From: Squalus acanthias | Lineage: Eukaryota | NCBI GenBank assembly: GCA_030390025.1 | Contig: CM059431.1 | Coordinates: forward strand, 158,722,001-158,786,000 | Direction of reading: 5' to 3' | DNA: 64,000 bases | Part shown: in pieces, positions 315 through 50,428 of the stretch | Layout of the letters: each line of letters starts with the position of its first letter | Numbering within the stretch: the first letter of the stretch is position 1 | The notes under the pieces: generated by a model | What the model saw: only the letters and a program-made list of their open reading frames with translations | The model's database searches: none | Told to the model about the DNA's origin: nothing | Made by a program: the position numbers and the translations under genes

Positions 315-1239
315 ATGGCAGGGGAGTCAGTGAAATGTTCCTCCTGCAGAATGTTTGAGGTGAGGGATGCCGTCGGTGTCCCTGCTGATTACACCTGTGG
401 GAAGTGCACCCATCTCCAGCTCCTCGAAAACCACGTTAGGGAACTGGAGCTGGAGCTGGATGAACTTCGGATCATTCGGGAGGCAGAGGTGGTCATAGAT
501 AGAAGCTTCAGGGATGTAGTTACTCCAAAGAATGAAGATAGATGGGTGACGGTGAGAGGGGCTAGGAGGAAGCAGTCAGTGCAGGGATCCTATTTGGTCG
601 TTACCCTCATTAACAACTATACCGCTTTGGATACTGTTGAGGGGGACGACCTACCAGTGGTAAGCCACGGTGACCAGATCTCCGGCGCTGAGTCCGTCCC
701 TGTGGCTCAGAAGGGAAGGGGGGAGAGCAGGAGAGCATTATTAATTGGGACTCAATAGTCAGAGGGACAGATAGGAGGTTCTGTGGCAGCAAAAGAGACT
801 CACGGATGGTATGTTGCCTCCCGGGTGCCAGGGTCCGTGACGTCTCCGACCGTGTTTTCAGAATCCTCAAGGGGGAGGGGGAACAATCACAAGTCGTGGT
901 ACACATCGGTACCAACGACATAGGTAGGAGAAGGGACGGGGATTTAAAACAGGAATTTATTGAGCTAGGTTGGAAGCTCAGAGCCAGTACAAACCATGCT
1001 GTAATCTCTGGTTTGTTGCCGGTGCCACGTGTTAGCGAGTTGAGGAACCGGGAGAGAGTGCAGATAAATACGCGGCTGCAGGGATGGTGTAGGGTGGAGG
1101 GTTTCAGTTATGTGGATAATTGGTGCACATTCTGGGGAAGGTGGGACCTGTACAAACAGGACGGTTTCCACCTGTCCAGAAGGGCACAAATATCCTGGGA
1201 GGGAAATTTGCTACGGCTCTTCGAGGGGGTTTAAACTAA
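315..1239 (+). pseudogene. CR1 ORF1 (SGNH esterase type), frameshifted
   Basis: ORFs 315-758 and 806-1234 match the intact ORF1 at 11585-12511; indels at the GDS motif (~745) and after DGFHL (~1175). Confidence 0.9.
1230..1236 (+). promoter_or_regulatory. Candidate -1 frameshift slippery heptamer T_TTA_AAC at ORF1 end (copy A)
   Basis: GGG GGT TTA AAC TAA; this copy is 1 nt shorter than copy B ~25 nt downstream, so its endonuclease is not in the -1 frame. Confidence 0.55.
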
Positions 1240-3151
1240 TTTGTCAGGGGGATGGACAAAGGGCTGTAGTCTAGGAGCCAGTGGTGATTGTAGGGAGGTA
1301 CTGAGGAGGGTATCAAGGTCGCAGGAATGTACCGGCAGACAGGAATGTGGCTTGAAGTGTGTCTACTTCAATGCAAGGAGCATCCGGAATAAGGTAGGAG
1401 AACTTGGAGCGTGGATTGGTACTTGGGACTACGATGTGGTGGCTATTACGGAGACATGGTTAGAACAGGGACAGGAATGGTTGTTGGAAGTTCCGGGGTA
1501 TAGATGTTTCAGTAAGTGTAGGGAAGGTGGTAAGAAAGTTGGAGGAGTAGCATTGTTAATCAAGGATAGTTTAACAGCGGCAGAAAGGCAGTTCGAGGGG
1601 TATCTGCCGTCTGAGGTAATATGGGCTGAATTTAGAAATAGGAAAGGAGCGGCATCGTTGTTCGGAGTCTTCTACAGGCCCCCAAATAGTAATAGAGATG
1701 TGGAGGAAGAAATTGCAAAGCAGATTATGAATAGAGTAGTTGTCATGGGTGACTTCAACTTTCCAAATATTGATTGGAACCTTTATAGGTAAAACAGTTC
1801 GGATGGGATAGTTTTTGCACAGTGTGTGCAGGAGGGTTTCCTGACACAATATGTGGATAGGCCGACAAGAGGTGGGGCCACATTGGATTTGGTACTGGGT
1901 AATGAACCGGGCCAAGTGTTTGATTTGTATGTGGGAGAGCACTTTGGAGATAGTGACCACAATTCGCTGACTTTCACTATTGCAATGGAGAGGGATAGGG
2001 CCATACGGCAGGGCAGGGTTTATAATTGGGGGAGGGGTAATTATGATGCGATTAGGCAAGAATTAGGGACCATAAGATGGGAACAGAAACAATCAGGGAA
2101 AGGCACAAACGAAAAGTGGAGCTTTTTCATGGAGCAATTACTGCGTGTCCTTGATAGGTATGTCCCTGCCAGACAGGGACGAAATGGCCGAGTGAGAGAA
2201 GCATGGTTCACAAAAGAGGTTGAATGTCTAGTCAAGAGGAAAAAGGAAGCGTATGTAAGGATGAGAAAACAAGGTTCAGTTGGGTCGATTGAGGGGTACA
2301 AGGTAGCAAGGAATGAGCTAAAAAAAGAGCTTAGGAGAGCTCGGAGGGGGCATGAGAAGTCCTTGGCGGGTCGGATCAAGGAAAACCCAAAGGCTTTTTA
2401 CTCTTATGTGAGAAATAAAAGAATGACCAGGGTGAGGGTAGGGCCGGTCAAGGACAGTAGTGGGAACTTGTGCATGGAGTCAGAACAGATAGGAGAGGTG
2501 ATGAATGAATACTTTTCGTCAGTGTTCACGGAGGAGAGGGGCCATGCTTTTGAGGATGAGCGTGTGATAAAGGTGGATAGGCTGGAGGAGGTAGATGTTC
2601 TGAGGGAAGATGTTTTAGCAATTTTGAAGAACCTGAGGGTCGATAAGTCCCCTGGGCCAGATGGGATATATCCTAGGATTCTTTGGGAGGCAAGGGAGGA
2701 GATTGCAGAGCCTTTGGCTTTGATTTTTGGGTCCTCACTGTCCACGGGGATGATGCCAGAGGACTGCAGAGTGGCGAATGTTGTTTCTCTCTTCAAGAAA
2801 GGAAATAGGAATGACCCTGGTAATTATAGTCCGGTCAGTCTTACTTCGGTGGTTGTTAAGATAATCGAAAAGGTCCTGAGGGTTAGGAATTATGAACATT
2901 TGGAAAGATGCAACTTAATCCGGGATAGTCAACACGGATTCGTGAAGGGTAAGTCTTGCTAACAAATTTGATTGAATTATTTGAGGAGGTAACTAAGTGT
3001 GTAGATGAAGGTAGAGCAGTTGATGTCGTATATATGGATTTTAGTAAGGCGTTTGATAAGGTTCCCCATGGTCGGCTCATGAAGAAAGTAAGGAGTTGTG
3101 GGATAGAGGGAAATTTGGCCGATTGGATAAGTAACTGGCTATCTCATAGAA

Positions 3152-4295: not shown

Positions 4296-6488
4296 TATTA
4301 AAATCGGCCTTCCCCCAATTTAGAACCTTTATCTCCGTTCCATCTTTGTCCTTTTCCATGACTACCTTAAATCTCTCCGAATTACGGTCACTGTCACCAA
4401 AATGCTCTCCGACAGACACTTCTACCACTTGCCCGGCTGCATTCCCTAGAATTAGTTTTAGTACCGCCCCCTCTCTTGTCGGACTTGCTACAAACTGTCT
4501 CAAAAAGCTCTCCTGGATGCACTTTAAGAATTATGCACCCTCTAAGCCTTTCACACTCTGACTATCCCAGTTAATATTGGGGAAGTTGAAAAACCCTACT
4601 ATTATTACCCTATTATATCTACACTTCTCTGAGATTTGCCTACATATCTGTTCTTCTATTGCCCCTGAATGTTTGGGGCCTATTGTACACTCCTAGGAAA
4701 GTGCTTGCCCCCTTTTTGTTTTTATGTTCTACCCATATGGCCTCATGAGAGGAACCTGCTATGTTATCTTCCCTCCTTACTGCAGTAATTGACTCCTTGA
4801 TTAATATTCCGACACCCACTCCTCTTTTACACACACATCTGTCTTGCCTGGAGATTCTATACACCGTAATAATGATCTTCCAGTCCTGGCACTCCCTCAA
4901 CCTTGTCTGCGTGATAGCAACAATATCATACTCCCATGTGTTCATCAACAACTTCAATTTATCTGCCTTACTCGCAAGACTACTTGCATTGAAATGAATG
5001 CCCGCCAGACTTGCCATACTCACTTGTGCCGTTACATATTTGCTCTGACTTCCAAACTGACTTGTTTTTTCCTCTATATTTGGCTGCGCATCACGCCCTA
5101 CTACAGCTCCACTCCGTATCCCATCCCCCTGCCAAGTTAGTTTAAATTCCCCCTAACAGCACTAGCAAACCTCCCCGCAAGAATATTGGTCCTGGTGCAA
5201 CCCGGTCGACTTGTACAGGGCCCACCTTCCCCAGAAACAGACACAACGTTCTAGGAAACTAAAGCCCTCCCTCCTGCATTAACTCTTTCGCCTCGCATTC
5301 ATCTGCTCTATCCTCCTATTCCTATACTCACTAGCACGTGGCACCGGCAGTAATCCAGTGATTACAACCTTTTCGGTCCTACTTTTTAATCTGCTACCTA
5401 GCTCCCTAAATTCTTGTTGCAGGACCTCATCTATCTTTCTATCTATGTCGTTGGTACCAATATGAACCACGACCTCGTACTTTTCGCACGGCCCCTTCAG
5501 AATGCACTGCAGCCGTTTAGTTACATCCTTGACCCTGGCACGAGGGAGGCAACTTACCATCCTGGAGTCACGTCTGCGGCCACAGAAACGCCTGTCTGCA
5601 CTCCTCACTATTGCGTCTCCTACCACTATTGCACTTCCACTTTTACTCCTCCCCCCTTGTGCAGCTGAACCACCCACAGTGCAGTGAACTTGGATCTGGC
5701 TGCTCTTCCCAGAGGAACTGTCACTTTCACGCGTTGCCTACACGGAATAACAGTTGTTGAGTGAGATGCACTCTGGGGGTTTCCTGACTACTGGCCTGCC
5801 TCCCGTCTTCTGACTGGTGTCTCCCATTCCCTCTCTTACTGCACTTTCTAATTCTGCGGAGTGACCACGTCCAAAAACGTGCTATCCATGTAAGTCTGAG
5901 CTCGCGCATACACCGCAGTGCCTCCAGCTGATGCTCGAGCTCCGAAAACCGGATCTCCAGTTGGCCAATCCATTGGCACTTACTGCACATGTGGTCATCC
6001 TGACTGCAAGAAGCGTCTAGGAATACCCACATGCTGCAGGACGTGGAACGCACGGGACTGAGGTCCCCTGCCATAACCTTAATTAAAAAACTCTTGCCTC
6101 AAATTTAAACTCTCGGATTCTCGCTCTCCCGAACTACATTAACTGTGAAATACCTTACAAAAATATACTTAAAAGTGATGAAAAAAAAACACTCGACCAC
6201 TATTCACTCATCAGCTTCTTCCCCTTCGCCGACGTCACTTTGGAATACGTATGTATTTCAATCTACACCAAGGCACTTAAATTTAGACGCCCAAGTTTAG
6301 AAAAAAGCGAGAAATAGAGTAATACTCATCAACCAATCATTTACCTGATTACTGTTGACGTGACACTTCGATTACTTTTTACTTCTTTACACTCACCGGT
6401 CCTTTGTATCTCAGCCACTCCCGCTGCTTTTACTGCCGCCGAAGTCTCGTGCTCTCCAGCCGCTCCCGCTGCTTTTACTGCCACCGAA
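4296..6488 (-). mobile_element. CR1-clade LINE family M, 5' part (copy 1), interrupted by copy A
   Basis: ORF1 pieces 5727-6074 (Zn finger, coiled coil) and 5279-5677 (VVGDAIV, GTND); endonuclease pieces 4640-5023 and 4279-4503; colinear with 28224-30400. Confidence 0.9.
5140..5146 (-). promoter_or_regulatory. Candidate -1 frameshift slippery heptamer (family M copy 1)
   Basis: Minus strand GGG AAT TTA AAC TAA; the -1 frame (FKLTWQGDGIRS...) is open into the endonuclease ORF 4640-5023. Confidence 0.7.
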
Positions 6489-6516: not shown

Positions 6517-7010
6517 CAACCCCAGTACCCTCTCTGACCAGCCCCAACACCCTCTCTCACCAGCCCCAACACCCTCAATGACCAGCCCCGACATTATCAC
6601 TGACCCAGCTCCACAAAGACAACCCACTCACGCAGGCAAGCACCGAAACCCCACTGAACCAGGCCAACACCGACACCCCACTGACACAACCCTACACCGA
6701 CACCCCACTGACACAGCCACACTCCGAAAACCCATAGACCCATTCCCCAGACCAACACACCACTGTCCCAGCCCAACACCGACACCCCACTTTCCCAGTC
6801 CTACACCGATACCCCACTGACATATACCAACACTGACACACTCACTGACCCAACATCGACACCCCACTGACATTGCCCAAGACCGGCACCCCACTGAGCC
6901 AGCCCTACACTGACACCCGACTCACCCAAACCAACACCGACACCCCACTCACCCTGCCCAACACTGCACTTACCCAACTAGAAAATGACAATGCACGGAC
7001 CCAGCCCCAC
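6517..7010. repeat. C/A-rich CACTGACCCAGCCC minisatellite, short array 1
   Basis: 23-bp then 27-bp units; start is colinear with 20085-20240. Confidence 0.9.
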
Positions 7011-10633: not shown

Positions 10634-11170
10634 AAGTATATTACAACACCCCTGCCTGATTTATATGCCTACTTCGTCCTTCTCTATAATGAACACAGAT
10701 GCAAAATATTAATTTAAAACCTCACCTACATATTCCGGCTCTGCACACAGATTGCCACTTTTGTCGCAAATGGGCCCTACTCTTTCCATGGTTACCCTCT
10801 TGCCCTTAATATACTTATAAAACACCTTGGGTTATTCCTTTAGTTTGCACACCAGTGTTTTTTATTGATCCCTCTTCGCACTCCTAATTTCTTTCTCAAG
10901 TACCCTTCTGCACATTCTATACTCCTCTCGGGCTTCCACTGTTTTTGGTCCTTTGTATCTGCCAAAAGGCTCCATTTTTTTCCTAAATCCATTCTTGTAT
11001 ATCCCTTGACATCCAGGATTCCCTGGCTTTGTTGGTCCCACCCTTGACTTTTACGGGAACATGTTGGAACTGTACTCTCTCTATTTCCTTTCTGAATAAC
11101 TCCCACTGCTCTGATATGGATTTCCTACAAGTAGCTGATCCCAGTCCATTTGGAAAGATCCTCCCTTATC

Positions 11171-11348
11171 AGCGCGGCGGCGGAGGCGGCGGACCTGTGA
11201 GGGAGCGGAGGAGAGCGGAGTACAAAATGTAAGCCCGAGGCGGCAGCGAGGCCTAGAGCAGCGCGGCGGCGGAGGCGGCGGACCTGTGAGGGAGCGGAGG
11301 AGAGCGGAGTACAAAAGGTAAGCCCGAGGTGGCAGCGAGGCCTAGAGC
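11171..11348 (+). repeat. Two tandem 89-bp GC-rich monomers at the CR1 5' end
   Basis: AGCGCGGCGGCGGAGGCGGCGGACCTGTGAGGGAGCGG... starts at 11171 and 11260. Confidence 0.9.
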
Positions 11349-11584
11349 TACGCGGGAGCAGTGGCGAAGGCGGACCAGTTGAGTGCTTTTATAATGCGGG
11401 TCGCAGTGGTTGCTGGGTAAGTGATTAATTTTTACCTATATATAAATTGGGCTGGTTCCTTAACCCGAGACACTACACTTGTAGTGTCCCCCACCCTTCC
11501 ACCTCCTCCAACCTAAATGGGATGAGTGAATATCAGATAAGCTCTTCCTTGTTCCTATTTTAACCCGCAAGTTAGCTGGGAGGG

Positions 11585-12511
11585 ATGGCAGGGGAGGCAG
11601 TGAAATGTTCCTCCTGCAGAATGTTTGAGGTGAGGGACGCCGTCGGTGTCCCTGCTGATTACACCTGTGGGAAGTGCACCCATCTCCAGCTCCTCGAAAA
11701 CCGCGTTAGGGAACTGGAGCTGGAGCTGGATGAACTTCGGATCATTCGGGAGGCAGAGGTGGTCATAGATAGAAGCTTCAGGGATGTAGTTACTCCAAAG
11801 AATGAAGATAGATGGGTGACGGTGAGAGGGGCTAGGAGGAAGCAGTCAGTGCAGGGATCCTATGTGGTCGTTCCCCTCAGTAACAAGTATAACGCTTTGG
11901 ATACTGTTGAGGGGGACGACCTACCAGTGGTAAGCCACGGTGACCAGATCTCCGGCTCTGAGTCCGTCCCTGTGGCTCAGAAGGGAAGGGGGGAGAGCAG
12001 GAGAGCATTGGTTATTGGGGACTCAATAGTCAGAGTGACAGATAGGAGGTTCTGTGGCAGCAAAAGAGACTCACGGATGGTATGTTGCCTCCCGGGTGCC
12101 AGGGTCCGTGACGTCTCGGACTGTGTTCTCAGAATCCTCAAGGGGGAGGGGGAACATTCACAAGTCGTGGTACACATCGGTACCAACGACATAGGTAGGA
12201 GAAGGGATGGGGATTTAAAACAGGAATTTAGGGAGCTAGGTTGGAATCTGAGAGCCAGTACAAACCATGTTGTAATCTCTGGTTTGTTGCCGGTGCCACG
12301 TGCTGGCGAGTTGAGGAATCGGGACAGAGTGCAGATAAACACGTGGCTGCAGGGATGGTGTAGGGGGGAGGGTTTCAGTTATGTGGATATTTGGAGCACA
12401 TTCTGGGGAAGGTGGGACCTGTACAAACAGGACCGTTTGCACCTGAACCAGAGGGGCACCAATATCCTGGGAGTGAAATTTGCTGCGGCTCTTCGGGGGG
12501 GTTTAAACTAA
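11585..12511 (+). CDS. Intact CR1 ORF1p: C2C2 Zn finger, coiled coil, SGNH esterase
   Basis: CSSC...CGKC; LQLLENRVRELELELDEL; SGNH blocks VIGDSIV, LPGARV, IGTND, DRLHL. Confidence 0.9.
   Translation: MAGEAVKCSSCRMFEVRDAVGVPADYTCGKCTHLQLLENRVRELELELDELRIIREAEVVIDRSFRDVVTPKNEDRWVTVRGARRKQSVQGSYVVVPLSNKYNALDTVEGDDLPVVSHGDQISGSESVPVAQKGRGESRRALVIGDSIVRVTDRRFCGSKRDSRMVCCLPGARVRDVSDCVLRILKGEGEHSQVVVHIGTNDIGRRRDGDLKQEFRELGWNLRASTNHVVISGLLPVPRAGELRNRDRVQINTWLQGWCRGEGFSYVDIWSTFWGRWDLYKQDRLHLNQRGTNILGVKFAAALRGGLN
12502..12508 (+). promoter_or_regulatory. Candidate -1 frameshift slippery heptamer (copy B)
   Basis: GGT TTA AAC TAA ends ORF1; the -1 frame reads FKLICQGDGKKGCSPGASGECR*VLRR...LKCVYFNARSI (the TAG is GAG in copy A), with no in-frame ATG. 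Confidence 0.7.
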
Positions 12512-15384
12512 TTTGTCAGGGGGATGGGAAAAAGGGCTGCAGTCCAGGAGCCAGTGGTGAGTGTAGGTAGGTACTGAGGAGGGTATCAAGGTCGCAGGAA
12601 TGTACCGGCAGACAGGAAGGTGGATTGAAGTGCGTCTACTTCAATGCAAGGAGCATCTCGAATAAGGTAGGAGAACTTGGAGCGTGGATTGGTACTACGA
12701 TGTGGTGGCCATTACGGAGACATGGTTAGAACAGGGACAGGAATGGTTGTTGGAAGTTCCGGGATATAGATGTTTCAGTAAGAGTAGGGAAGGTGGTAAG
12801 AAAGGTGGAGGAGTAGTATTGTTAATCAAGGATAGTTTAACAGCGGCAGAAAGGCAGTTCGAGGGATATCTGCCGTCTGAGGTAATGAGGGCTGAAGTTA
12901 GAAATAGGAAAGGGGCGGTCACGTTGTTAGGAGTTTTCTACAGGCCCCCAAATAGTAATAGAGATGTGGAGGAAGAAATTGCAAAGCAGATTATGAATAG
13001 GTGTGGAGGTCACAGAGTAGTTGTCATGGGTGACTTCAGCTTTCCAAATATTGATTGGAACCTTTATAGGTCAAACAGTTCGGATGGGATAGTTTTTGCA
13101 CAGTGTGTGCAGGAAGGTTTCCTGACACAATATGTGGATCGGCCGACAAGAGGTGGGGCCACATTGGATTTGGTACTGGGTAATGAATCGGGCCAAGTGT
13201 TTGATTTGTATGTGGGAGAGCACTTTGGAGATAGTGATCACAATTCGGTGACTTTCACTATTGCAATGGAGAGGGTTAGGGCCATACGGCAGGCAGGGTT
13301 TATAATTGGGGGGTGGGGTAATTATGATGCGATTAGGCAAGAATTAGGGAGCATACGATGGGAGCAGAAACTATCAGGGAAAGGCACAAACGAAAAGTGG
13401 TGCTTTTTCATGGAGCAATTACTGCGTGTCCTTGATAGGTATGTCCCTCTCAGGCAGGGAGGAAATGGCCGAGTGAGAGAACCATGGTTCACAAAAGAGG
13501 TTGAATGTCTAGTCAAGAGGAAAAAGGAAGCGTATGTAAGGATGAGAAAACAAGGTTCAGTTGGGTCGATTGAGGGGTACAAGGTAGCAAGGAATGAGCT
13601 AAAAAAAGAGCTTAGGAGAGCTAGGAGGGGGCATGAGAAGTCCTTGGCGGGTCGGATCAAGGAAAACCTCAAGGCTTTTTACTCTTATGTGAGAAATAAA
13701 AGAATGACCAGGGTGAGGGTAGGCCGGTCAAGGACAGTAGTGGGAACTTGTGCATGGAGTCAGAACAGATAGGAGAGGTGATGAATGAATCCTTTTCGTC
13801 AGTGTTCACCGAGGAGAGGGGCCATGTTTTTGAGGATGAGAGTGTGATAAAGGTGGATAGGCAGGTGGAGGTAGATGTTCTGAGGGAAGATGTTTTAGCA
13901 ATTTTGAAGAACCTGAGGGTCGATTAATGCCCTGCGCCAGATGGGATATATCCTTGGATTCTTTGGTAGGCCTGGGAGGAGATTGCAGAGCCTTTGGCTT
14001 TGATCTTTGGGTCCTCACTGTCCACGGGGATGATGCCAGATGACTGGAGAGTGGCGAATGTTGTTCCTCTCTTCAAGAAAGGAAATAGGACTGACCCTGG
14101 TAATTATAGGCCGGTCAGTCTTACTTCGGTGGTTGGTAAGATAATGGAAAAGTTCCAGATTTATGATCATTTGCAAAGATGCAACTTAATCCGGGATAGT
14201 CAACACGGATTCGTGAAGGGGAAGTCTTGCCTAACAAATTTGATTGAATTCTTTGAGGAGGTAACTAAGTGTGTAGATGAAGGTAGAGCAGTTGATGTCG
14301 TATACATGGATTTTAGTAAGGCGTTTGATAAAGTTCCCCATGGTCGGCTCATGAAGATAGTAAGGAGTTGTGGGATAGAGGGAAATTTGGCCGATTGGAT
14401 AAGTAACTGGCTATCTCATAGAAGGCAGAGGGTGGTGGTGGATGGAAAATTTTCGGACTGGAGACCAGTTACCAGCGGTGAGCCACAGGGGTCGGTTCTG
14501 GGTCCAGTGCTGTTTGTGATTTTTATCAATGACTTGGAGGAGGGGACTGAAGGGTGGATCAGTAAATTTGCTGATGACACCAAGATTGGTGGAGTAGTGG
14601 ATGTGGTGGAGAGCTGTTGTAGGTTGCAAAGAGACATTGATAGGATGCAGAGCTGGGCCGAAAAATGGCATATGGAATTTAACCCTGATAAGTGCGAGGT
14701 GATTAATTTTGGCAGGGCAAATTTGAATAAGGAGTACAGGGTCAACGGCAGGGTTCTGAGGAACGTGGAGGAACAGAGGGATCTGGGGGTTCATATCCAC
14801 AGATCTCTGAAGGTTGCCACTCAAGTGGATAGAGCAGTAAATAAGGCCTATAGTGTGTTAGCGTTTATTAACAAGGGGTTTGAGTTTAAGAACCGTGAGG
14901 TTATGCTGCAACTGTACAGGACCTTGGTGAGACCACATTTGGAATATTGTGTGCAGTTCTGGTCACCTCACTATAGGAAGGACGTGGAACCATTGGAAAG
15001 AGTGCAAAGAAGATTTACCAGGATGCTGCCTGGTTTGGGCGGAGGTCTTATGAGGAAAGATTGAGGGAGCTAGGGCTTTTCTCTTTAGAGCGGAGGAGGA
15101 TGAGAGGCGACTTAATAGAGGTTGATAAGATGATGAGGGGGATAGATAGAGTGGATGTTCAGAGACTATATCCTCGGGTGGATGTAGCTGTTGCAAGGGG
15201 GCATAACTATAAGGTGCATGAGGGGAGATATGGAAGGGATGCCCGAGGTAGATTATTCAATCAGAGAGTGGTTGGGCTGTGGAATGGACTTCCTGCTGTG
15301 ATAGTGGAGTCGGGCACTTTAGGAACTTTCAAGCGGTTATTGGATAAGCAAATGGAGCACACCAGAATGATAGGAAAGGGATAG
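12502..15384 (+). pseudogene. CR1 ORF2, disrupted
   Basis: TAG at 12568, 7-bp deletion near 12695, frameshifts; fragments 12684-13772, 13994-15064, 15061-15384. Confidence 0.9.
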
Positions 15385-19775: not shown

Positions 19776-22700
19776 AACACCCTCACTTACCCAGTCCCGA
19801 CACCCTCACTGACCCAGCCGCGACACCCTCACTGACCCAGTCCCGACACCCTCACTGACCCAGTCCCGACACCCTCTCTGACCAGCCCCAACACCCTCTC
19901 TCAACAACCCCAACACCCACTCTGACCAGCCCCGACACCCTCACTGACCCAGTCCCGACACCCTCACTGACACAACCCCAACACCCTCTCTGACCAGCCC
20001 CAACACCCTCTCTGACCAGCCCCAACACCCTCTCTCAACAACCCCAACACCCTCACTGCACCAACCACAACACCCTCTCTGACCCAACCCCAACACCCTC
20101 TCTGACCAGCCGCAACACCCTCTCTCACCAGCCCCAACACCCTCACTGACCAGCCCCGACATTATCACTGACCCAGCTACACAACGACAACCCACTCACG
20201 CAGGCCAGCACCGACACCCCACTGACTCAGCCCAACACCGACACACCACTGACCCAGCCCTGAACCGACACCCCACTGACCAAGTCCTACACCGATACAC
20301 CACTGACACAGCCACACTCCGACAACCCACAGACCCAAGCCACACACCAACACCCCACTGTCCCAGCCCAACACCGACACCACTGTCCCAGTCCTACACC
20401 GACACCCCACTGACCATGTCCTACACCGACACCCCACTGACACAGCCCAAAACCGAAACACTCACTGACCTAACACCGACAGCTCAGAGACACAGCTCAA
20501 CACCGAAACCCTACTGACACAGCACAACAACGACACCCCACTGACCCAGCCCAACACCGACACCCTCACTGACCCAGCACAACAACGACACCACAATGAC
20601 CCAGCCCAACACCGATACGCTCACTGACCCAACAGCGACACCCCAGTCACCTTACCTAAAGACCGACACCCCGCTGACACAGACCGACAACGGAACCACC
20701 CTGAGACACCCGAACACAGGAACACCAGTAACACAGCCCAAACCGACACCCCACTTACCCAGCCCAACACAAACATCCCACTTAAACAGCCCGACACCGA
20801 AATCCCACAGGCACAGACATATAACGAAACCCCACTGATCGAGCGCAACACCGACACCCCACTCACCCAGCCCAACACCGACACCCCACTCAACCAGCCC
20901 AACACCGAAACCCTACTCACCCAGCCCAACACCGAAACCTCACTGACACAGCCCAACACCGACACCCCACTGACACAGCCCAATACCGACAAACTCACTG
21001 ACCCAACACCGACACCCTACAGACACAGCACAACACCGAAACCCTACTGACACAGCACAACAACGACACCCCACTGACACAGCCCAACAGCGAAACCTCA
21101 CTGACACAGCCCAACACCGAAACACCACTGACACAGCCCAATACCGAAACCATACAGACCCAGCCCAACACCGACACCACACTGACCCAGACTTACACCG
21201 ATACCCCACTGACCCAGTCCGATACCGGCACCCCACTGACCCAGTCCTATACCGAAACCCAACTGTCCCAGCCCAACAGCGACACCCCACTGACCCAATC
21301 CCAAAATCAACACCCTCATTGACCCAACACCGACACCACACTGACCCAGCCCAACACCGACAACACACTGACCCAGCCCAACACCGACACCACATTGACC
21401 CAGCCCAACACCGACACACACTGACTCGGCGTCAACCCGACACACAACTGACCGAGCCCAACACAGACAATCCACATACCCAGAACAAAACCGACATCAT
21501 CTCTGATCCAGTCCGACACCGACACCACACTGACCCAGCCCAACACCAAAACCCATTGACACAGCCATACACCGACACTCGAGTTACCCACGCTATAGCC
21601 GACATCCTCTCTGACCAAGCCCGACACCGACAGCAACTGACCCCGCCAAACACCGACACCCCACTGACCCAGCTCAATACCGAAACCCTCACTTACCCAA
21701 CGCCGACACCCAACTGACCCGGCCCATCATCGACACCCCAATGACCCAAACCCGATACCCCATTGACCCAGTCCAAAACCGACACCCCACTGACCCAGCA
21801 CCGACACCACACTGACCCAGACCAATACCGACACCACACTGTCGCAGCCCTACACCGAAACCCCACTGACCCAACACGGACAACCCACTGTCCCAGTACT
21901 ACACCGATAACCCACTGACCCAGACCAACACCGACACCACACTGACCCAGCCCAACACCGACACCCACTGACCCAGCCCAACACCGACACCCCACTGACC
22001 CAGCCCAACAGCGACACCCACTGACCCAGCGCAACACCGACACCCCACTGACCAAGTCCTACACCGACACCCCACTGACCCAGCCCTACACTGGCACACA
22101 ACTGTCCCAACCCAACACCGACAACCCACTGACCCAGACCAACACCGACAACCCACTAATCCAGCCCTACACTGGCACCCAACTGTCCAACCCAACACCG
22201 ACAACCCACTGTCCCAGACCAACACCGACAACCCACTGACCCAACACCGACACCCCACTGACCCAACACCGACACCCCACTGACACAGTCCAACACCGAC
22301 AACCCACTGACCCAGACCAACACCGACAACCCACTGACCCAACATCGACACCCCACTGACCCATTCCTACACGGACAACCCATTGACTCACACCAACACG
22401 GACACCCCACTTTCCCAGGACGAAGCCGACATCCTCACTGACCCAGACCGACACCGACACTAACTGACCAAGCCCAACACCGACTCCTCACTGACCCAAT
22501 CCAACACCGACACCCAACTGACGCAGCCCAACACCGTCACCCCACTGACCCAACATCGACACCCCACTGACCCAGACCAACACCGACAACCCACTGACGC
22601 AAAATCGACACCCCACTGACCCAGTCCTACACCGACATCCCATTGACCCAGACAACACCGACACCCCACTGACCCAGTCCTACACCGACAACCCATTGAC

Positions 22701-25700
22701 CCAGACCAACACCGACACCCCACTGAACCAGACCAACACCGAAACCCCACTGACCCAGCCCTACACCGACACCCCACTGAAACAGACAAACAACGAAACC
22801 CCACTGACCGAGCCCAACACCGACACCACACTGACACAGCCCAACACCGACACCACAATGACCCAGACCAACACCGACACCACACTGACACAGCCCAACA
22901 CCGACACCCCACTGACAGCCGTACACCGGCAACCCACTGACCCAGCCCAATACCGAAAGCAACTGACCCGGCCACAACCCGACACACAACTGACCGAGCC
23001 CAACACAGACACACCACTTACCCGGAACAAAACCGACATCATCTCTATCCAGTCAGACACCGACACCAGGCTGACCAAGCCCAACACCAAAACGCATTGA
23101 CACAGCCCTACAATGATACCCCACTTTCCCGGGCTAAAGCCGACATCCTCTCTGAACCAGCCCGACACCGACACTCACTGACCAAGCCCAACACCAACCC
23201 CTCACTGTCTCAATCCAACTCCGGCACCCCACTGAACAAGCCCAACATCGAAACCCCACTGGACAAGTCTTAAACCGGCACCACACTGATCCAGACCAAG
23301 ACCGACACCACACTGACCCAGCCCAACACCAACACCACACTGACCCAGCCCAACACCGACACCACACTGACCCAGGCCAATCCCGACACCACACTGACCC
23401 AGCCCAACACCGACAACTCACTTACCCAGCCCAACATCGACACCACACTGACCCAGGCCAAACCCGACACCACACTGACCCAGCCCAACACCGACACCAC
23501 ACTGATCCAGGCCAAACCCGACACCACACTGACACAGCCCAACACCAAAACGCCGCTGACCCAGCCCCACACCTACACCACACTGACCCAGCACAACACC
23601 GACACCTCACTGACCCAGCCCCACACCGACACCTCACCGACCCGACACCACACTGACCCTTCCCAACACCGACAACCTCAATGACACAGCAAAACACCGA
23701 AATCCACTGACCCGGCAGCAACCCAAAAACACACTGACCCAGGCCTACACAGACACACCACTTACCCAGTCCAAAACCGACATCCTCTCTGACCCAGCCC
23801 GACACCGGCACCCCACTTACCCAGCCCAAACCCGACAGCACACTGACCCAGCCCAACACTGCCACCCCACTGACCAAGCCCAACACCGAGACCCTCACTG
23901 AACCAACAGCGACACCCCACTCACCTTACCCAAAGACCGATAGCCCACTGACACAGACCTACAACGGCAGCCCACTGAGACAGCCATACACCGAAACCTA
24001 ACTAACACAGCCCAAAACCGATACCTCAAAGACCCAGCCCGACACCGAATCCCTCAGTAGCCCGACAGCCACACTCCACTGACCCAGGCTAACACAGATA
24101 CCACACTGACACAGCCCAACACCGACACCCCACTGACAAAGCCCAAAACGACACCCCACCCACACAGCCCAACACCGAAACCCCACTGACACAGCCCAAC
24201 ACCGAAACCCCACTGACCAACACAACACCGACACCCCACTGACCCAGCACAACACCGACACCCCACTCACACAGCCCAACACCGAAACCCCGCTGACCCA
24301 ATCCTAAACCGAAAACCCGCTGACCCAGCCCTACACCGACACACTCACTGACCCAACCCTACACCGACATCACACTGACCCAGCCCAACAGCGACACCCC
24401 ACTGACCCAGCCCAACACCGACACCCCACTGACCAAGCCCAACACCGACACCCCACTGACCCAGCCCAACACCGACACCCCACTGACACTGCCATACACC
24501 GACATACCACTGTCACAGCAAAACACCGACAACCTAACAAACACAAAACCGACACCCCACTGACCCAGTCCAACACCGAACATCCCACTGGCCTAGTCCA
24601 ACACCGACAGCCCACTGACCCAGCCCTACACCGACACTCCACTGGACAAGTCTTACACCGGCAGCCCATTGACCCCATTCAACACCGCCACCCTCTCTGA
24701 TCCAGCCCAACACCGACACTCCACTGGACAAGTCTTACACCGGCAGCCCATTGACCCCATTCAACACCGCCACCCTCTCTGATCCAGCCCAACACCGACA
24801 CCCCACTGATACAGCCCATCACCGACACCCCACTGATCCAGCCAAACAACGACACCCCAACTGATACAGTCCAATACCGAAACCCCACAGACACAGCCCA
24901 ACACTGAAACCCCACTGACACAGCCCAACACCGACACCCCACTGACACAGCCCAACTCCGACACCACACTGACACAGCCCAACAGCGATACCCCACTGAC
25001 ATAGCCCAACTCCGACACGCCACTGACACAGCCCAACACCGACACTCCACTGACCCAGACCAACCCCGACAGCCCAAAGTCCCAGCACATCACCGACACT
25101 ACACTGACCCAGCTCCACACCGGCACCTCGCTGACACAGCCCAACACCGACACCGCAATGAAACAGTCCCACACCGACACCCCACTGACAGAGCCCCTCA
25201 AAGACACCCTCACTAATCCAACACCGACAACACACTGACCCAGCCCAACACCGACACCTCACTGACCCAACAGCGACACCGCACTGACCATGCTAAAGAC
25301 CGACACACCACTGACCCAGCCATACAACGGCACTCCACTGAGCCAGCCCTACACAGACACCGCATTGACCGATCCCAAATCTGACACCCCTAAGACACAG
25401 CTCAACATCGAATTCCTCACTGGCCCGTCAGCGACACCCCACTGACCCGGCGCAACACCGACACCCCACTGACCCAGCCCTGCACCGAAACCCCACAGAG
25501 CCAGCCATACAACGACAACCCACTGACCCAGCCCTAAACGACCCCACACTGACCCAGATCAATACAAAAAACCACAATGACCCAGCCCAACACCCTCACT
25601 CCACTGACCCAATCAAATAGCGACACCGCAATGACCCTGATCAACACCGACACCCCACTGATCCAGCCAAACAACGGCACCCCAACTGATACAGTAAATA

Positions 25701-26040
25701 CCTACAAGCCACAGACGCAACCCAACACCGACATCCCACTTACACAGCCCAACACCGACACCCCACTGACATAGCCCAACACTGACACCCTCACTGACCC
25801 AACATCGACACCCCACTGACATTGACCAAGTCCGACACCCCACTGAGCCAGCCCTACACTGACACCCCACTGACCTAGACCGAAACCGACATCCACTGAT
25901 GCACCCTACCCCGACAGCCCACTGACCATGCCCGAAACTGAAACCCGACTCACACAGACCAACACCAACACCCCACTCACCCTGCCCAATACTGCACTTA
26001 CCCAACTCGACAATGACAATGCACGGACCCAGCCCCAACC
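19776..26040. repeat. C/A-rich minisatellite, long array 2 (~6.3 kb)
   Basis: 23-bp CACTGACCCAGCCCCGACACCCT-like block, then 27-bp CACTGACCCAGCCCAACACCGACACCC with 22-bp variants; exact 82-bp tandem duplication at 24641/24723. Confidence 0.95.
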
Positions 26041-26224: not shown

Positions 26225-29065
26225 GTGGGTTGCTGCATCTACCACCCTTTCAGGCAGTGAATTCCAGATTCCAACCACCCTCTGGGTGAAAAAGTTTTTC
26301 CTCAAATTCCCTCTAAACCCCCTGCCACTTACGTTGAAACTATGGCACCTGGTTATTGACCCCGCTTCGAAGGGTAAATGTTCCTTTCTATATACCCTAT
26401 CTATTCCGCTTATAATTTTGTACACCTCAATCAGGTCCCCCCTCAGCCTTCGCTGCTCTAAGGAAAACAACCCCAGCCTGTCCAGTCTCTCTTCATAGCT
26501 AAAGCGCTCCGGCCCAAGTAACATCCTGGTGAATCTCCTCTGCACCCTTTCAAAAGCAATCACGTCCTTCCTATAGTGTGGCGACCAGAATTGCCCACAG
26601 TATTCCAGCTGTGGTCTAACTAACGTTTTGTACAGTTCCATCATAACCTTCCTGCTTTTATATTCTATGCCTCGGCTGATGAAGGCAAGTATCCCATATG
26701 CCTTTTAAACCAACTTATCTAACTGTTCTCCTGCCTTCAGAGATCTATGTATATGCACACTAAGGTCGCTCTGGTCCTCTGTTCTTCCTACGGTCCTACC
26801 ATTCATTATGTATACCCTTGCCTTCTTAGTCCTCCCAAAATGCATCACCTCACACCTTTCAGGGTTAAATTCAATTTGCCACTTTTTTGCTCATCTGACC
26901 AACCCATCTATATCGTCCTGTAGCCTGAGGCTTCCCTCTTCGCTATTTACCACTCCAGCAATTTTCGTGTCATCTGCGAACTTACTGATCATACCTCCTA
27001 CATACATATCTAAATCATTAATGTACACTACAAACAGCAAGGGACCCAGCACCGAACCCTGCTGTACACCACTGGACACAGGCCTCCAGTCACAAAAACA
27101 ACCTTCGACCTCACCATCTGCCTCCTGCAACTAAGCCAATTTTGGATCCAATATGCCAAATTGCCCTGGATTCCATCTGCTCTTAACTTCTAGACCAGTC
27201 TCCCATGCGGGACGTTGTCAAAAGCCTTACTGAAGTCCATGTAGACTACACAACTGCACAACTCTCATCCAAACAATATTTACCCTTCGAAAAATTTTAT
27301 CAAATTGTTTAGACATGATCTCCCCCTGACAAAGCCATGCTGACTATCCTTGATTAATTATTGCCTCTCGAAGTGAAGAATAATTCTGTCACTCAGAATT
27401 GTTTCCAATAATTTCCCTACCACTGATGTTAGACTCACTGGTCTGCAGTTCGCTGCTTTATCCCTACTACCCTTCTTGAATAATGGTACTACGTTAGCTG
27501 ACCTCCAGCCCACTGGCACCTCCCCTGTGGCCAGAGTTTCTGAATTTTTTTTTTTAGATCCCCTGCAATCTCCTCCCTTGCCTCACACAGCATCCTGGGA
27601 TACATCTCGTCTGGGCCTGGGGATTTATCCATATTTAAGCCGACTAAAACCGCTAGTGCCTCCTCCCTCTCAATGATAATTTATTCAAGTATATCACAAC
27701 ACCCCCGAATGACTTATATGCCTAGTTCGTCCTTCTCTATAATGAACACAGATGCAAAATATTAATTTAAAACCTCACCTACATCTTCCGGATCTGCACA
27801 CTGCTTGCCACTTTTGTCCCTAATGGTCCCTACTCTTTCCCTGGTTATCCTCTTGCCTAAATATATTTCTAAAACACCTTGGGTATTCCTTTAGTTTGCA
27901 CACCAGGGTTTTTTATTGACCCCCTCTTCGCACTCCTAATTTTTTTCTTAAGTACCCCTCTGCAAATTCTATACTCCTCTTGGGCTTCCACTGTTTTTGG
28001 TCCTTTGTATCTGCCAAAAGGCTCCATTTTTTTCCTAAATACATTCTTGTATATCCCTTGATATCCAGGGTTCCCTGGCCTTGTTGTTCCCACCCTTAAC
28101 CTTGACGGGAACATGTTGGAACTGTACTCTCTCTATTTCTCTTCTGAATTACTCCCACTGCTCTGATTGGATTTTTCTACAAGTAGCAGATCACAGTCCA
28201 CTTTGGCCAGATCCGCACTGATCATATTAAAATCGGCCTTCCCCCAATTTAGAACACTTATCTCCGGTCCATTTTTGTCCTTTTCCATGACTACCTTAAA
28301 TCTCACTGAATTACGGTCACTGCCACCGAAATGCTCTCCGACAGACACTTCTAGCACTTGCCCGGCTACATTCCCTAGAATTAGTTCTAGTACCGCCCCC
28401 TCTCTTGTAGGACTTTCTACAAGTTAGCTCAAAAAGCTCTCCTGGATGCACTTTAAGAATTCCGCACCCTCTAAGCCTTTCACACTGTGACTATCCCAGT
28501 TAATATTGGGGAAGTTGAAAACCCCTACTATTATTACCCTATTATATCTGCACTTCTCTGAGATTTGCCTACATATCTGTTCCTCTATCGCCCCTGATGT
28601 TTGGGGGCCTATTGTACACTCCTGGGAAAGTGCTTGCCCCCTTTTTGTTTTTAAGTTCTACCCATATAGCCTCATTAGAGGAACCTGCTATGATATCATC
28701 CCTCCTTACTGCAGTAATTGACTCCTTGATTAATATTGCGACAGCCCCTCCTCCTTTACACACACATCTATCTCGCCTGAAGATTCTATACCCCGTAATA
28801 ATGAGCTGCCAGTCCTGGCACTCCCTCAACCTTGTCTCCGTGATAGCAACAATATCATACTCCCATGTGTTCATCAACTTCACTTTATCTGCCTTACTCG
28901 CAAGACTACTTGCATTGAAATGAATGCACGCCAGGCTAACCATACTCAATTGTGCCGTTACTTATTTGCTCTGACTTCCAAACTGGCTTGTTTTTTCCTC
29001 TATATTTGGCTGCGCATCAGCCCCTACTATAGCTCCACTCCGTATCCCATCCCCCTGCCAAGTTA

Positions 29066-29072
29066 GTTTAAA
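29066..29072 (-). promoter_or_regulatory. Candidate -1 frameshift slippery heptamer (family M copy 3)
   Basis: Minus strand AAT TTA AAC TAA; the -1 frame equals the frame of endonuclease ORF 28569-28949 (one intervening TAA, which is TAT in copy 1). Confidence 0.7.
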
Positions 29073-30336: not shown

Positions 30337-31495
30337 CTCAGCCGCACCCGCTGCATTTACTGCCGCCGAAGTCTCGTGCTCTCCAGCCGCTCCCGCTGCT
30401 TTTTCTACCGCCGAAGTCTCGTGCTCTCCAGCCGCTCCCGCTGCCTTTTCTGCCGCCGAAGTCTCGCGCTCTCCAGCCGCTCCCGCTGCTGTTACTGCCG
30501 CCAAAGTCTCGTGCTCTCCAGCGGCTCCCGCGGCTTTTTCTGCCGCCGAAGTCTCGCGCTCTCCAGCCGCTACCGCTGCTTTTTTTGCCGCCGAAGTCTC
30601 GCGCTCTCCAGCAGCTCCCGCTGCATTTACTTTCCCCGGAGTCTTGCGATCTCGAGCCGCTCCCGCAGCTTTTAATGCCCCCGATGTCTCGTGCTCTCTA
30701 GCCGCTCCCCCTGCTTGTACTGCCCCCGAAGTCTCGCGCTCTCCAGCCTCTCCCGCAGCTTTTACTGCCGCCGAAGTCTCGTGCTCTCCAGCCGCTCCCG
30801 CTGCCTTTTCTGCCGCCGAAGTCTCGCGCTCTCCAGCCGCTCCCGCTTCTTTTTCTGCCGCCGAAGTCTCGTGCTCTCCAGCCGCTCCCGCTGCCTTTTC
30901 TGCCGCCGAAGTCTCCTGCTCTCCAGTCGATCCCGCTGCCTTTTCTGCCGCCGAAGTCTCGTGCTCTCCAGCCGCTCCCGCGGCTTTTTCTGCCGCCGAA
31001 GTCTCGCGCTCTCCAGCCGCTACCGCTGCTTTTTCTGCCGCCGAATTCTCGCGCTCTCCAGCAGCTCCCGCTGCATTTACTTTCCCCGAAGTCTTGCGAT
31101 CTCCAGCCGCTCCCGCAGCTTTTAATGCCCCCGAAGTCTCGTGCTGTCTAGCCGCTCCCCCTGCTTGTACTGCCCCCGAAGTCTCGTGCTCTCCAGCCAC
31201 TCCCCCTGCTTGTTCTGCCCCCGAAGTCTCGCGCTCTCCAGCCGCTCCCGCTGCTTTTACTTCCGCCGAAGTCTCGCGATCTCCAGCCTCTCCCGCTGCT
31301 TTTACTGCCCCCGAAGTCTCGCGCTCTCCATCCGCTCCCGCTGCTTTTACTGCCGCCGAAGTCCTGTGCTCTCGAGACGCTCCAGCTGTTTTTACTTCCG
31401 CCGAAGTCTTGCGCTCTCCAGCCGCTGCCGCTGATTTTACTGCTGCCGAAGTCTGGTGCTCTCCAGCCGCTCCCGCTGATTTTACTGCCACCGAA
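30337..31495. repeat. 45-bp tandem array (~26 units) at the 5' end of CR1 family M
   Basis: GCCGCCGAAGTCTCGYGCTCTCCAGCCGCTCCCGCTGCTTTTWCT; 30370 to 31495 is exactly 25x45; 450-bp higher-order match at 30601/31051. Confidence 0.97.
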
Positions 31496-37261: not shown

Positions 37262-38860
37262 AGACACCCTCACTGACCCAGCCGCGACACCCTCACTGAC
37301 CAAGTCCCGACATCCTCACTGACCCAGTCCCGACACCCTCTCTGACCAGCCCCAACACCCTCACTGACCCAGTCCCGACACCCTCTCTGACCAACCCCAA
37401 AATCCTCTCTGACCAGCCCCAACACCCTCACTGACCAGCCCCGACATTATCACTGACTCAGCCCAACACCGACACCCCACTGACCCAGCCCTACACCGAC
37501 ACCCCACTGACCCAGCCCTACAGCGACAACCCACTGACACAGCCACACTCCGACAAACCACAGACCCATTCCCCACACCGACACCCCACTGTCCCAGCCC
37601 AACACCGCACCCCACTGACCCAGTCCTACACCGACACCCCACTGACCAAGTCCTACACCGACACCCCACTGACACAGCCCAAAACCGCCACACTCACTGA
37701 CCCTACACCGACAGCTCAGAGATACAGTCAATACCGAAATCCTACTGACACAGCACAACAACGACACCCCACTGACCTAGCCCAACACCGACACCCTCAC
37801 TGACCCAGCACAACAACGTCACCACAATGAACCAGCCCAACACCGACACCCCACTGACCCAGTCCTAAACCGACACACCACTTACCCAGGCCAAAACCGA
37901 CATCCTCTCTGACCCAGGCCGACACCGACACTCACTGACCAAGCCCAACATCGACACCTCACTGACACAATCCAACACCGACACCCCACTGGACAAGACT
38001 TAGACCGCCAGCCCACTGACACAATCCAACACTGACACCCCACAGACCCAGCCCAACACCGAAACCCTCACTGACCCAACAGCGACAACCCAGTAACCTT
38101 ACGTAAAGATCGACACCCCACTGACACAGACCGACAACGGCACCACACTGAGAAACCCGAACACAGAAACACAATTAACAAAGCCCAAAACCGATACCCC
38201 AATGACCCAGCCCGACACCGAATCCCTCACTGGCCCGACAGCGACAACCCACTGACACAGCCCAACGCAAACAGCCCACTTACCCAGCCCTACGCCGAAA
38301 TAACACAGGCACAGACATATAACGAAACCCCACTGATCGAGCGCAACACCGACATCCCACTCACCCAGCCCAACACCGACACCCCACTCACCCAGCCCAA
38401 AACCGAACTCCCACTCACCCAGCCCAATACCGAAACCCTACTCACCCAGCCCAACACCGAAATCACACTGACACAGCCCAACACCGAAACTCCACTGACA
38501 CAGCCCAATACCGAAACCATACAAACCCAACCCAACACCGACACTCCACTGACCCAGTCCTGTACCGAAACACCACTGTACCAGCCAAACAGCGACAACA
38601 AACTGACACCCTCACTGACACAACATCGACACCCCACTGACATTGACCAAGACCGACCCACTACTTAGCCGGTCCTACACTGACACCCCACTGACCTACA
38701 CCGAAACCGACCTCCACTGATGCAACCTACCCCTACACCCCACTGACCCTGCCCTAAACTGACACCCGAATCACCCAGATCAACAACGACACCCCACTCA
38801 CAATGCCCAACACTGCACTTAGCCAACTCGAAAATGAAAATCCACGGACCCAGCCCCACC
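37262..38860. repeat. C/A-rich minisatellite array 3
   Basis: 23-bp then 27-bp units; same left junction as array 2. Confidence 0.95.
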
Positions 38861-48835: not shown

Positions 48836-48842
48836 TTTAAAC
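48836..48842 (+). promoter_or_regulatory. Candidate -1 frameshift slippery heptamer (family C)
   Basis: AGG GCT TTA AAC TAA; the -1 frame joins ORF 48883 only if one base is restored, e.g. in the A run at ~48875. Confidence 0.55.
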
Positions 48843-49056
48843 TAATTAGTGGGGGGGAGGTTTCAAGAGGGCAAAAATAAAAATGACAACAGGGAGGGTC
48901 ATAGACATAGGTAGCAGCAGGGGAATCACAAATCAGAGCGTGGCAGGAAGGGACAGAGTGTGTGGAGTAAAAGGTAAAGTGGTAAAAAGTGAGAAAGCAG
49001 GAACTAAGTGCCACAAAGCATATTTGAAAGTTCTCTATCTGAATGCACGTAGCATT

Positions 49057-50428
49057 CATAGATACATAGATACATAGAAGATAGGAGCAGGAGTAGGCCA
49101 TCCGGCCCTTCGAGCCTGCTCCGCCATTTAATGAGATCATGGCTGATCCTTCAATTCAGTATCCCGTCCCCGCCTTCTCTCCGTAACCCTTAACCCCTTT
49201 TGCCTGTAGAAATATATCTAATTCCCTCTTAAATATATTTAATGAGCTGGCGTACACTGCCCTCTGTGGCAATGAGTTCCACAGGTTCACCACTCTCTGA
49301 GTGAAGAAATTCCCCCTCATTTCTGTCCTAAATGGTTTAGCCCTTATCCTTAAATTATGTCCTCTAGTTCTGTTCTCACCCGCCAAGGGAAACATTCCTT
49401 CTGCATCTAATCTGTCTAGACCTGTCAGAATTTTATACACTTCTATGAGGTCCCCTCTCAATCTTCTAAACTCCAGTGTGTACATCCCTAAACTACATAG
49501 TCTCTCCTCATAGGTCAATCCCGCCATTCCTGGTATCAGCCTGGTGAATCGCCGCTGCACCCCCTCCATGGCAAGAACATCTTTCCTCAGATGAGGCGAC
49601 CAAAACTGTACACAGTACTCGAGGTGTGGTCTCACCAGTGCCCTGTACAGCTGCAGCAAGGTATCCCTGTTCCTGTATTCCAACCCTTTTGCTATGAAGG
49701 CCAGCATACCGTTTGCCTTCTTGACCGCCTGTTGCACCTGCATGCTCGCCTTCAGTGACTGGTGTACAAGAACACCCAGGTCTCTCTGTACTTCCCCCTC
49801 TCCCAATTTATTGCCATTTAAATAATAATTTGCCCTCCCGTTCCTGCACCCAAGGTGGATAACTTCGCACTTGTCCACATTATAGTGCATCTGCCATTTA
49901 TCCGCCCAATCACCCAGTCTGTCCAAATCGCTCTGGAGCTTCCTGGTCTCCTCCTCTGAGCCCACCCCCCCTCCTAGTTTAGTGTCGTCTGCAAATTTGG
50001 AAATGCTGCATTCGACTCCCTGATCCAGGTCATTAATATAAATTGTGAACAGCTGGGGACCCAGGACAGATCCCTGTGGTACCCCACTTGTTACTGCCTG
50101 CCATTCAGAAAATGAGCCGTTTATTCCAACTCTCTGTTTTCTATCTGACAGCCAGTTCTCTATCCACGTCAATACTTTCCCCTTTATCCCATGAGCTTCA
50201 ATTTTCCATGCTAATCTTTTATGTGGGACCTTATCGAAGGCCTTTTGGAAGTCCAGGTACACCACATCTACTGGCTCTCCCCCATCTATTTTACCAGTTA
50301 CTCCCTCAAAAAATTCCAATAGATTAGTCAAGCACGATTTACCCTTTGTAAATCCATGTTGACTCTGTCCTATCCTGTCCCCATTTGCTAAGTGCTCGGC
50401 TATTTCATCCTTAATGATGGACTCCAGA
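49057..50428 (-). mobile_element. 5'-truncated CR1 (family D) nested antisense in the family C endonuclease
   Basis: Open RT ORF 49156-50457; TATCTATG tail; splits the NARSI / NxIDELMAQI motif. Confidence 0.93.

Follow-up and report, generated by a model that had tools for sequence, protein, structure and literature searches.

A conserved slippery heptamer at the end of ORF1 suggests programmed -1 ribosomal frameshifting into ORF2 of CR1 retrotransposons

Programmed -1 ribosomal frameshifting is well established in viruses. In the coronavirus infectious bronchitis virus (IBV), at the 1a/1b junction, and in retroviral Gag-Pol, a heptamer of the form X_XXY_YYZ lies in register at the end of the first open reading frame (ORF), with the polymerase ORF in the -1 frame (PMC3542737, PMC5009743). 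A precedent among retrotransposons without long terminal repeats (non-LTR) is provided by the TRE5-A and TRE3-A elements of Dictyostelium, long interspersed nuclear elements (LINEs) with an apurinic/apyrimidinic (APE) endonuclease, for which a -1 frameshift is stated to be required for ORF2; these differ from CR1 LINEs in clade, ORF1, and host (PMC5911963). A frameshift is also stated for the gag of HeT-A. CR1 is described as the dominant retrotransposon of most vertebrate species (PMC13343379), and canonical vertebrate CR1 elements have an esterase ORF1, an ORF2 encoding APE endonuclease and reverse transcriptase, and an octamer-repeat tail (PMC13343379, PMC4120745, PMC3905857). Here we describe CR1 copies of this canonical anatomy within a 64,000-nucleotide stretch of the shark Squalus acanthias (assembly GCA_030390025.1, contig CM059431.1, positions 158,722,001 to 158,786,000 of the forward strand), referred to below as the window. 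Their ORF1 ends in the heptamer U_UUA_AAC, in the same register as the viral signals and likewise with the polymerase ORF in the -1 frame. CR1 LINEs with an esterase ORF1 probably make ORF2 by programmed -1 ribosomal frameshifting, which would yield an esterase-endonuclease-reverse transcriptase fusion of about 1,300 residues.

The window contained several decayed LINEs whose ORF1 encodes an esterase and whose ORF2 encodes APE endonuclease and reverse transcriptase. The word TTTAAACTAA occurred five times, against 0.08 expected from 100 shuffles, at 1230 (+), 5137-5146 (-), 12502 (+), 29063-29072 (-), and 48836 (+). Each occurrence terminated a frame ending ..LN*, in the register T_TTA_AAC followed by TAA (5/5), as an earlier note made from these letters had described for all five ORF1/ORF2 junctions. 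The ..LN* frames of copies A and B matched the GDSL esterase domain PF13472, those of the M copies were ORF1 by tblastn, and that of copy C was recognized as ORF1 by conserved C-terminal words. Frame translation bore out the same note in placing the endonuclease motif in the -1 frame in copies B, M1, and M3, and comparison with further copies confirmed that A and C are each one base short (A relative to B and L005, C relative to L067 and L138). Copy C is additionally interrupted by a 1.3-kb minus-strand CR1 piece. Copy B is also defunct, with a -1-frame TAG (-1 codon 22; Table 1) and a 7-nt deletion near 12693; thus the window holds no intact copy of family A.

To find ORF1 ends without reference to the heptamer, a profile of the ORF1 C-terminus lacking its last five residues was searched against copies found with divergent ORF1 proteins, with PF13472 (70 of 150 places), in arbitrary stretches, and in host-derived metagenome contigs. 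Forty arbitrary 10-kb stretches (400 kb) contributed only four junctions, and targeted searches were therefore used. The profile gave 178 hits, 159 of which had an in-frame stop at the expected place. TTTAAAC was present at 146 of these 159 ends, and the 13 ends with another sequence were all single copies; where the stop was absent (19 hits), TTTAAAC was found nearby in 15. Removal of the 31 family A entries, for which the query had held the heptamer, left 115 of 128. Genome-wide, the junction pattern was counted 20,076 times on the forward strand, compared with 723 for the reversed pattern, and all 40 of the matches fetched were ORF1 ends. Among sampled genome-wide copies with a traceable endonuclease motif (n = 32), the motif lay in the -1 frame in 22 and was shifted in 10, several of these at visible homopolymer changes. 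The ORF2 frame was -1 in the intact copies of every family traced, as the earlier note's own check had called for.

Metagenome contigs provided 37 loci, of which 21 were examined and 15 of those reached the junction. All were bird-type (L079 was 98% identical to a penguin protein) except L071, whose ORF2 was nearest, among named hits, to a sea cucumber protein (49%) and whose junction has the sequence G_TTA_AAC_TAG, its -1 frame continuing open into the endonuclease. Among the ORF2 N-termini of 120 relatives of L071 there was no GKL start, and 2 of 40 long N-termini fit the pattern, one of them FKL-like. The viral contigs, plasmids, and phages searched held no relative, and prokaryote genomes only one short fragment, without a junction. 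CR1 ORF1 sequence was also encountered under bacterial names (P0006 and L108; Pseudomonas, Providencia), probably host contamination.

Codon-level conservation was assessed with 20 representatives, all real copies (shark, bird-type, and one invertebrate-like) with a median nucleotide identity of 48%; four single decayed copies were left out and one medoid was swapped for an intact member. Positions -6 to +1 were invariant in all 20, and position -7, the wobble base before TTA, was T in 19 and G in one. With the last four codons excluded from tree building, and with some noise from three representatives that are out of frame upstream, TTA and AAC of the heptamer changed zero times on the tree, compared with 5, 1, 7, and 9 changes for conserved upstream Leu codons and 5-9 for Gly. 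Codon usage in these ORFs is such that TTA makes up 15% of Leu and AAC 40% of Asn; an alignment of 44 ORF1s shows no variation in the residues themselves, L307 and N308. Hence no synonymous change in the heptamer was found across divergent families, and the earlier note's concern that its five sites amounted to only three independent families was removed. The invariance that it proposed to test held for the Leu-Asn codons; the preceding T was replaced once. The replacement, G_UU, is a tolerated slippery-site variant (PMC3542737) and is the one found in equine arteritis virus (PMC3542737, PMC5009743). The copies thus combine an X_XXY_YYZ heptamer in the zero-frame register with synonymous-site conservation of the shift site. 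As judged from sequence, the signal is real, far beyond chance, and conserved across gnathostome CR1s, and its conservation probably extends beyond them. The ORF1 stop, TAG in 11 representatives and TAA in nine, toggled four times and was never TGA, though CTG would retain Leu in the -1 frame.

Protein databases extended the reach of these comparisons. Among 243 ORF1 relatives, the C-terminal region lay near the protein end in 184, which ended in LN (119), GN (9), KN (1), or otherwise (55); named proteins ending in LN include those of a ray, the chimaera group, a frog, an eel, and a penguin, the frog, eel, and GN/KN elements being represented by protein only. Retention of the heptamer requires that the amino acid preceding LN have a codon ending in U. 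A residue not encodable in this way was present in 1 of 119 proteins and in none of 26 clusters (<55% identity), compared with 23% at neighbouring sites (P about 0.001, with no correction for the tree; part of the effect could come from a structural preference). Of the nine GN ends, eight are QGN, readable as C-AG-GGA-AAC. Mammalian ribosomes are stated to shift most readily on a set of heptamers that includes U_UUA_AAC, G_GGA_AAC, and A_AAA_AAC (PMC5009743), and the distant GN and KN ORF1s would be compatible with a predicted switch to G_GGA_AAC or A_AAA_AAC. A hunt for longer ORF1 fusions found no fused family and only one ray gene model (P0244), which joins esterase and endonuclease (FKL..) in one frame at the junction and is probably the annotation of a transposable element copy. 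The same probably applies to gene model P0129, in which the end of a CR1 esterase is attached to an FNIP gene. In L015 (833-1612), the esterase half of a CR1 ORF1 is linked in frame with a reverse transcriptase-like piece that carries a YIDD motif.

The frames around the heptamer leave little room for a shift elsewhere. A stop lying 1-5 codons upstream of the heptamer shuts the -1 frame in 17 of 20 representatives, and in all 20 the -1-frame overlap contains no AUG; between the heptamer and the first AUG or the endonuclease (16 traced), the -1 frame had no stop in 392 codons, compared with 24 and 39 in the other two frames. The shift window is thereby confined to the heptamer. The linker is 37-88 codons long and always in frame. 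In family A, the endonuclease motif lay in the -1 frame in each of the 30 best junction copies and was preceded there by no Met, in agreement with the claim that no in-frame ATG precedes YFNARS in this family; the query contained the heptamer, and the result bears on the frame and not on the heptamer. Longer stretches of family A have codon 166, inside the endonuclease and beyond its NARS and ITETW motifs, as their first in-frame Met, and for another family this Met is at codons 119 and 202, again inside the endonuclease, so that initiation at AUG could not yield the whole endonuclease in those families. Further AUG-less linkers were present among the genome-wide sample copies. The linkers of families M and C, as had been stated, contain an AUG, at codon 43 and codon 16, respectively.

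One intact copy, L254, displays the complete arrangement: ORF1 is open for 315 codons, and the -1 frame runs without a stop for 997 codons, starting at the heptamer and taking in endonuclease and reverse transcriptase, up to the octamer tail, with PF03372, PF14529, and PF00078 in one frame. The predicted fusion has 1,309 residues and a mass of about 148 kDa. PF13472 was above cut-off in copies A and B and in L254, and repeats of TTCTATGT, the 3' octamer tail, follow ORF2 in L254 and at window position 42841. On whether the reverse transcriptase groups with canonical CR1 or with L2 there was indirect evidence only: 37% identity over 469 residues to a bird-type ORF2, and a description of chondrichthyan L2 elements as having no ORF1 (PMC13343379). 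The copies are of the CR1 LINE type by their esterase ORF1, their ORF2 with APE endonuclease and reverse transcriptase, and their octamer tail.

Downstream of the heptamer, every representative carries a run of 4-7 G, starting at 10 nt (16 representatives), 8 nt (3), or 7 nt (1) and followed by GG(G). Positions +10, +11, +13, and +17 do not vary, and two of these are -1-frame wobble positions, which makes the G-run probably an RNA signal; that it stimulates frameshifting is speculative, and we regard it as a candidate. A stem-loop or pseudoknot 5-9 nt downstream is the one canonical feature of a -1 signal that was not detected, the conserved G-run being found there instead; CR1 also differs from the viral cases in that the stop directly follows the heptamer and the host element is a non-LTR retrotransposon. 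Two described systems offer partial analogies. At the nsp2 site of the virus that causes porcine reproductive and respiratory syndrome (PRRSV), the place of an RNA structure is taken by a short linear motif, 10 nt beyond the slippery site and functional within a range of 9-11 nt; that motif is C-rich, bound by nsp1beta/PCBP, and directs -2 and -1 shifts, whereas the CR1 motif is G-rich, and the likeness is one of analogy only (PMC4937337). In synthetic reporters, a three-tier G-quadruplex (G4) after UUUAAAC stimulates a -1 shift with an optimum spacer of 6-8 nt (PMC3919603); CR1 shares the G-tracts after the same heptamer but has a spacer of 7-10 nt and no three-tier pattern. No natural G4-stimulated -1 frameshift was known to a 2016 review (PMC5009743). 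By its spacing the G-run fits the protein-bound PRRSV motif better than the G4 reporters.

The proposed mechanism is as follows. Most ribosomes would read UUA-AAC, terminate, and release the ORF1 protein (ORF1p) of about 35 kDa. On a minority, tRNA-Leu and tRNA-Asn would re-pair on UUU-AAA, CUA would be read next, and the junction would become ..LN-LI/LT/LA.., the slipped product of about 1,300 residues (about 148 kDa in L254) comprising ORF1, linker, endonuclease, and reverse transcriptase. For family A the predicted junction peptide is GGLNLICQGDGK. GFKLICQG, which the earlier note had offered as a junction peptide, is merely the -1 translation of the DNA and should be dropped, as tandem slippage predicts ..GGLN-LICQG. 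More speculatively, a pause might be imposed by the G-run 7-10 nt downstream, protein-bound or folded as a small G-quadruplex, instead of by a pseudoknot. Slippage would set a ratio of the Gag:Gag-Pol kind and would tether the enzymes to an ORF1p particle. The Gag-Pol-like fusion was already proposed in the earlier note, and is supported at the sequence level by the frame, the codon invariance, and the families without AUG.

Several observations weigh against frameshifting, or against the breadth claimed for it. A stimulator is part of the classical -1 frameshift signal. Folding of the sequence 3' of the site gave neither a conserved hairpin nor a conserved pseudoknot (minimum free energy z -1.5 to +1.8, without pseudoknot-aware folding), element-wide duplex scans no conserved long-range pairing partner, and G4-aware folding no conserved stimulator structure; the three-tier G4 pattern was present in 0 of 20 representatives and the two-tier pattern in only 12 of 20 (background 6%). 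The families are related by descent and their counts are not independent, and because the representatives were partly chosen as intact, the zero-stop count in the linker is inflated. Two of the four copies left out had other heptamers (TTTACGA in L074, TTTATAC in L170). Of the 184 protein ends, 56 are neither LN nor GN; many are broken gene calls, and some may be lineages without the signal. The interpretation of the GN and KN ends is from protein alone, and zero exceptions among nine is not significant. An in-frame AUG overlaps the stop (TAATG) in L160/162, L264, L282, L283, and L286, and lies 2 nt after the stop in the bird-type L075, L076, L077, and L080; four of the 20 representatives have their first in-frame Met at codon 3-4, some of them as TAATG.

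SART1 translates ORF2 by stop-start coupling at UAAUG. L1, which uses unconventional reinitiation (PMC5009743), and SART1 resemble CR1 in having a bicistronic LINE RNA, and a few CR1 families also have TAATG; L1 and SART1 give a free ORF2 protein, whereas the anatomy of CR1 predicts a fusion. The main rival explanation, which we consider improbable, is that CR1 makes ORF2 by termination-reinitiation or stop-start coupling, from a nearby AUG or a non-AUG codon, the conserved bases being a reinitiation signal. It draws on the families with TAATG or with AUG 2 nt past the stop, on the failure to find a classical stimulator, and on the suggestion that L1 ORF2 starts independently of AUG (PMC5009743). 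However, an AUG overlapping or adjoining the ORF1 stop was found in only 4 of 20 representatives; it comes and goes among families, and most lack it yet keep the heptamer. Reinitiation also leaves unexplained why the invariant bases spell the exact X_XXY_YYZ word in register, why the single change observed is to the tolerated G_UU, why, counted from the heptamer, the frame is invariably -1, and why K, E, Q, M, and W are excluded before LN. Families with an AUG near the stop may use both routes.

The remaining alternatives are all very unlikely in our estimation. ORF2 could be translated from a spliced RNA if the junction were a 3' splice site, with CTAAY as branch point and AG at +9/+10; CTAA[TC] and a nearby AG do exist in the TAA families, but TAG in 11 of 20 representatives abolishes the branch A, the distance from branch to AG would be about 8 nt, many families have no pyrimidine tract, and some have no AG. 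Contigs from four runs, guessed to be RNA, cross the junction gap-free, and none of the four listed joints is GT..AG, which is weak evidence in the same direction. Equally unlikely is a polymerase that slips on the G- or T/A-runs and so adds one base to an RNA that is then translated normally: flanking G-runs do vary in length among dead copies, and the ray gene model has ORF1 and FKL.. in one frame, but the upstream G-run is not conserved, and new insertions would inherit an added base, although an in-frame fusion was seen in none of the families examined. TTTAAA is also too short a homopolymer for such slippage. Finally, an overlap between two protein ends, the ..LN of ORF1 and an FKL..G motif of ORF2, might be the sole reason why the bases are retained, and both the invariant L307 and N308 and the occurrence of FKL..G in all -1 translations would suit this. 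There is, however, no upstream -1-frame AUG in any of the 20 representatives, and FKL would be untranslatable without recoding; this largely refutes such dual coding, which retains little chance of being correct. Wobble positions that are free in both proteins (AAC/AAT aside, the G at +10 and +13) are also fixed.

The features of the CR1 copies in the window are collected in Table 1. In family A, a further word, G_GGT_TTA, which is X_XXY_YYZ-like and also in register, precedes the main heptamer by one codon (12499-12505 and 1227-1233, both +); it is also present in other ..GLN families and not in ..ALN or ..DLN families. The piece that splits copy C is a 3' CR1 ORF2 fragment (49159-50457, -) sitting reversed in the start of its endonuclease, with a short duplication at 49063-49080. 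Tandem arrays just 5' of ORF1, of a 45-bp unit x 25.7 at copy M3 (30339-31495) and of an 89-bp unit x 2.1 at copy B (11170-11355), are likely monomers of the 5' untranslated region. Elsewhere the window contains long arrays of a C/A-rich satellite with a 22-27-bp unit and strong strand skew (20166-25989, 37451-38813, 57044-59442, 6598-6964, and 63640-63997).

Table 1. Coordinates of CR1 features in the window
Feature	Position	Strand	Basis or remark
Copy B (family A) ORF1: Cys-rich N-terminus and SGNH/GDSL esterase, ending ..GGLN*	11585..12511	+	PF13472 match
Copy B slippery heptamer T_TTA_AAC: final two ORF1 codons and preceding wobble base	12502..12508	+	
Copy B ORF1 stop TAA, adjoining the heptamer	12509..12511	+	TAA or TAG in 20/20 representatives
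Copy B G-rich element GGGGG-AT-GGG, lying 10 nt downstream of the heptamer; putative candidate stimulator	12519..12528	+	
Copy B AUG-less 45-codon linker, -1 frame, to YFNARS (12637-12654); contains TAG at 12568-12570	12502..12654	+	
Copy B broken ORF2: APE endonuclease and reverse transcriptase, in several frames	12666..15384	+	
Copy A (family A) junction: heptamer, TAA, G-run; one base short of intact copies	1230..1256	+	
Copy M1 junction: heptamer 5146-5140, TAA, G-run; -1 frame open into endonuclease	5120..5146	-	
Copy M3 junction: heptamer 29072-29066, TAA, G-run; endonuclease in -1 frame	29046..29072	-	
Copy C junction: heptamer, TAA, G7 run; one base short downstream; endonuclease split	48836..48862	+	

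In the literature searched there was no report of CR1 frameshifting, and the word 'frameshift' is not used in the main text of a 2026 survey of vertebrate CR1 (PMC13343379) or of two further papers (PMC4120745, PMC3905857), the set including an ORF1 survey and the esterase structure. The primary CR1 papers of 1997-2006 (chicken, turtle PsCR1) and the Repbase notes fell outside that search and may mention the overlap. New in this analysis are the conserved G-run lacking a pairing partner and the distant ORF1s ending in (Q)GN or KN. The earlier note also made no mention of the absence of a classical stimulator, of the UAAUG or other AUG close to the stop in some families, or of the precedent in the Dictyostelium TRE elements.

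How CR1 translates its ORF2 seems not to have been addressed in the literature examined. If frameshifting is confirmed, the real enzyme of these elements would be an esterase-endonuclease-reverse transcriptase fusion, ORF2 annotations that start at a linker AUG would be wrong, and attempts to reconstitute CR1 retrotransposition from free ORF2 would be misguided. A virus-like recoding signal would be present at tens of thousands of sites per shark genome, given the number of forward-strand matches, and might include a natural G-rich, structure-free stimulator. LINE ORF1/ORF2 would then closely parallel Gag/Gag-Pol.

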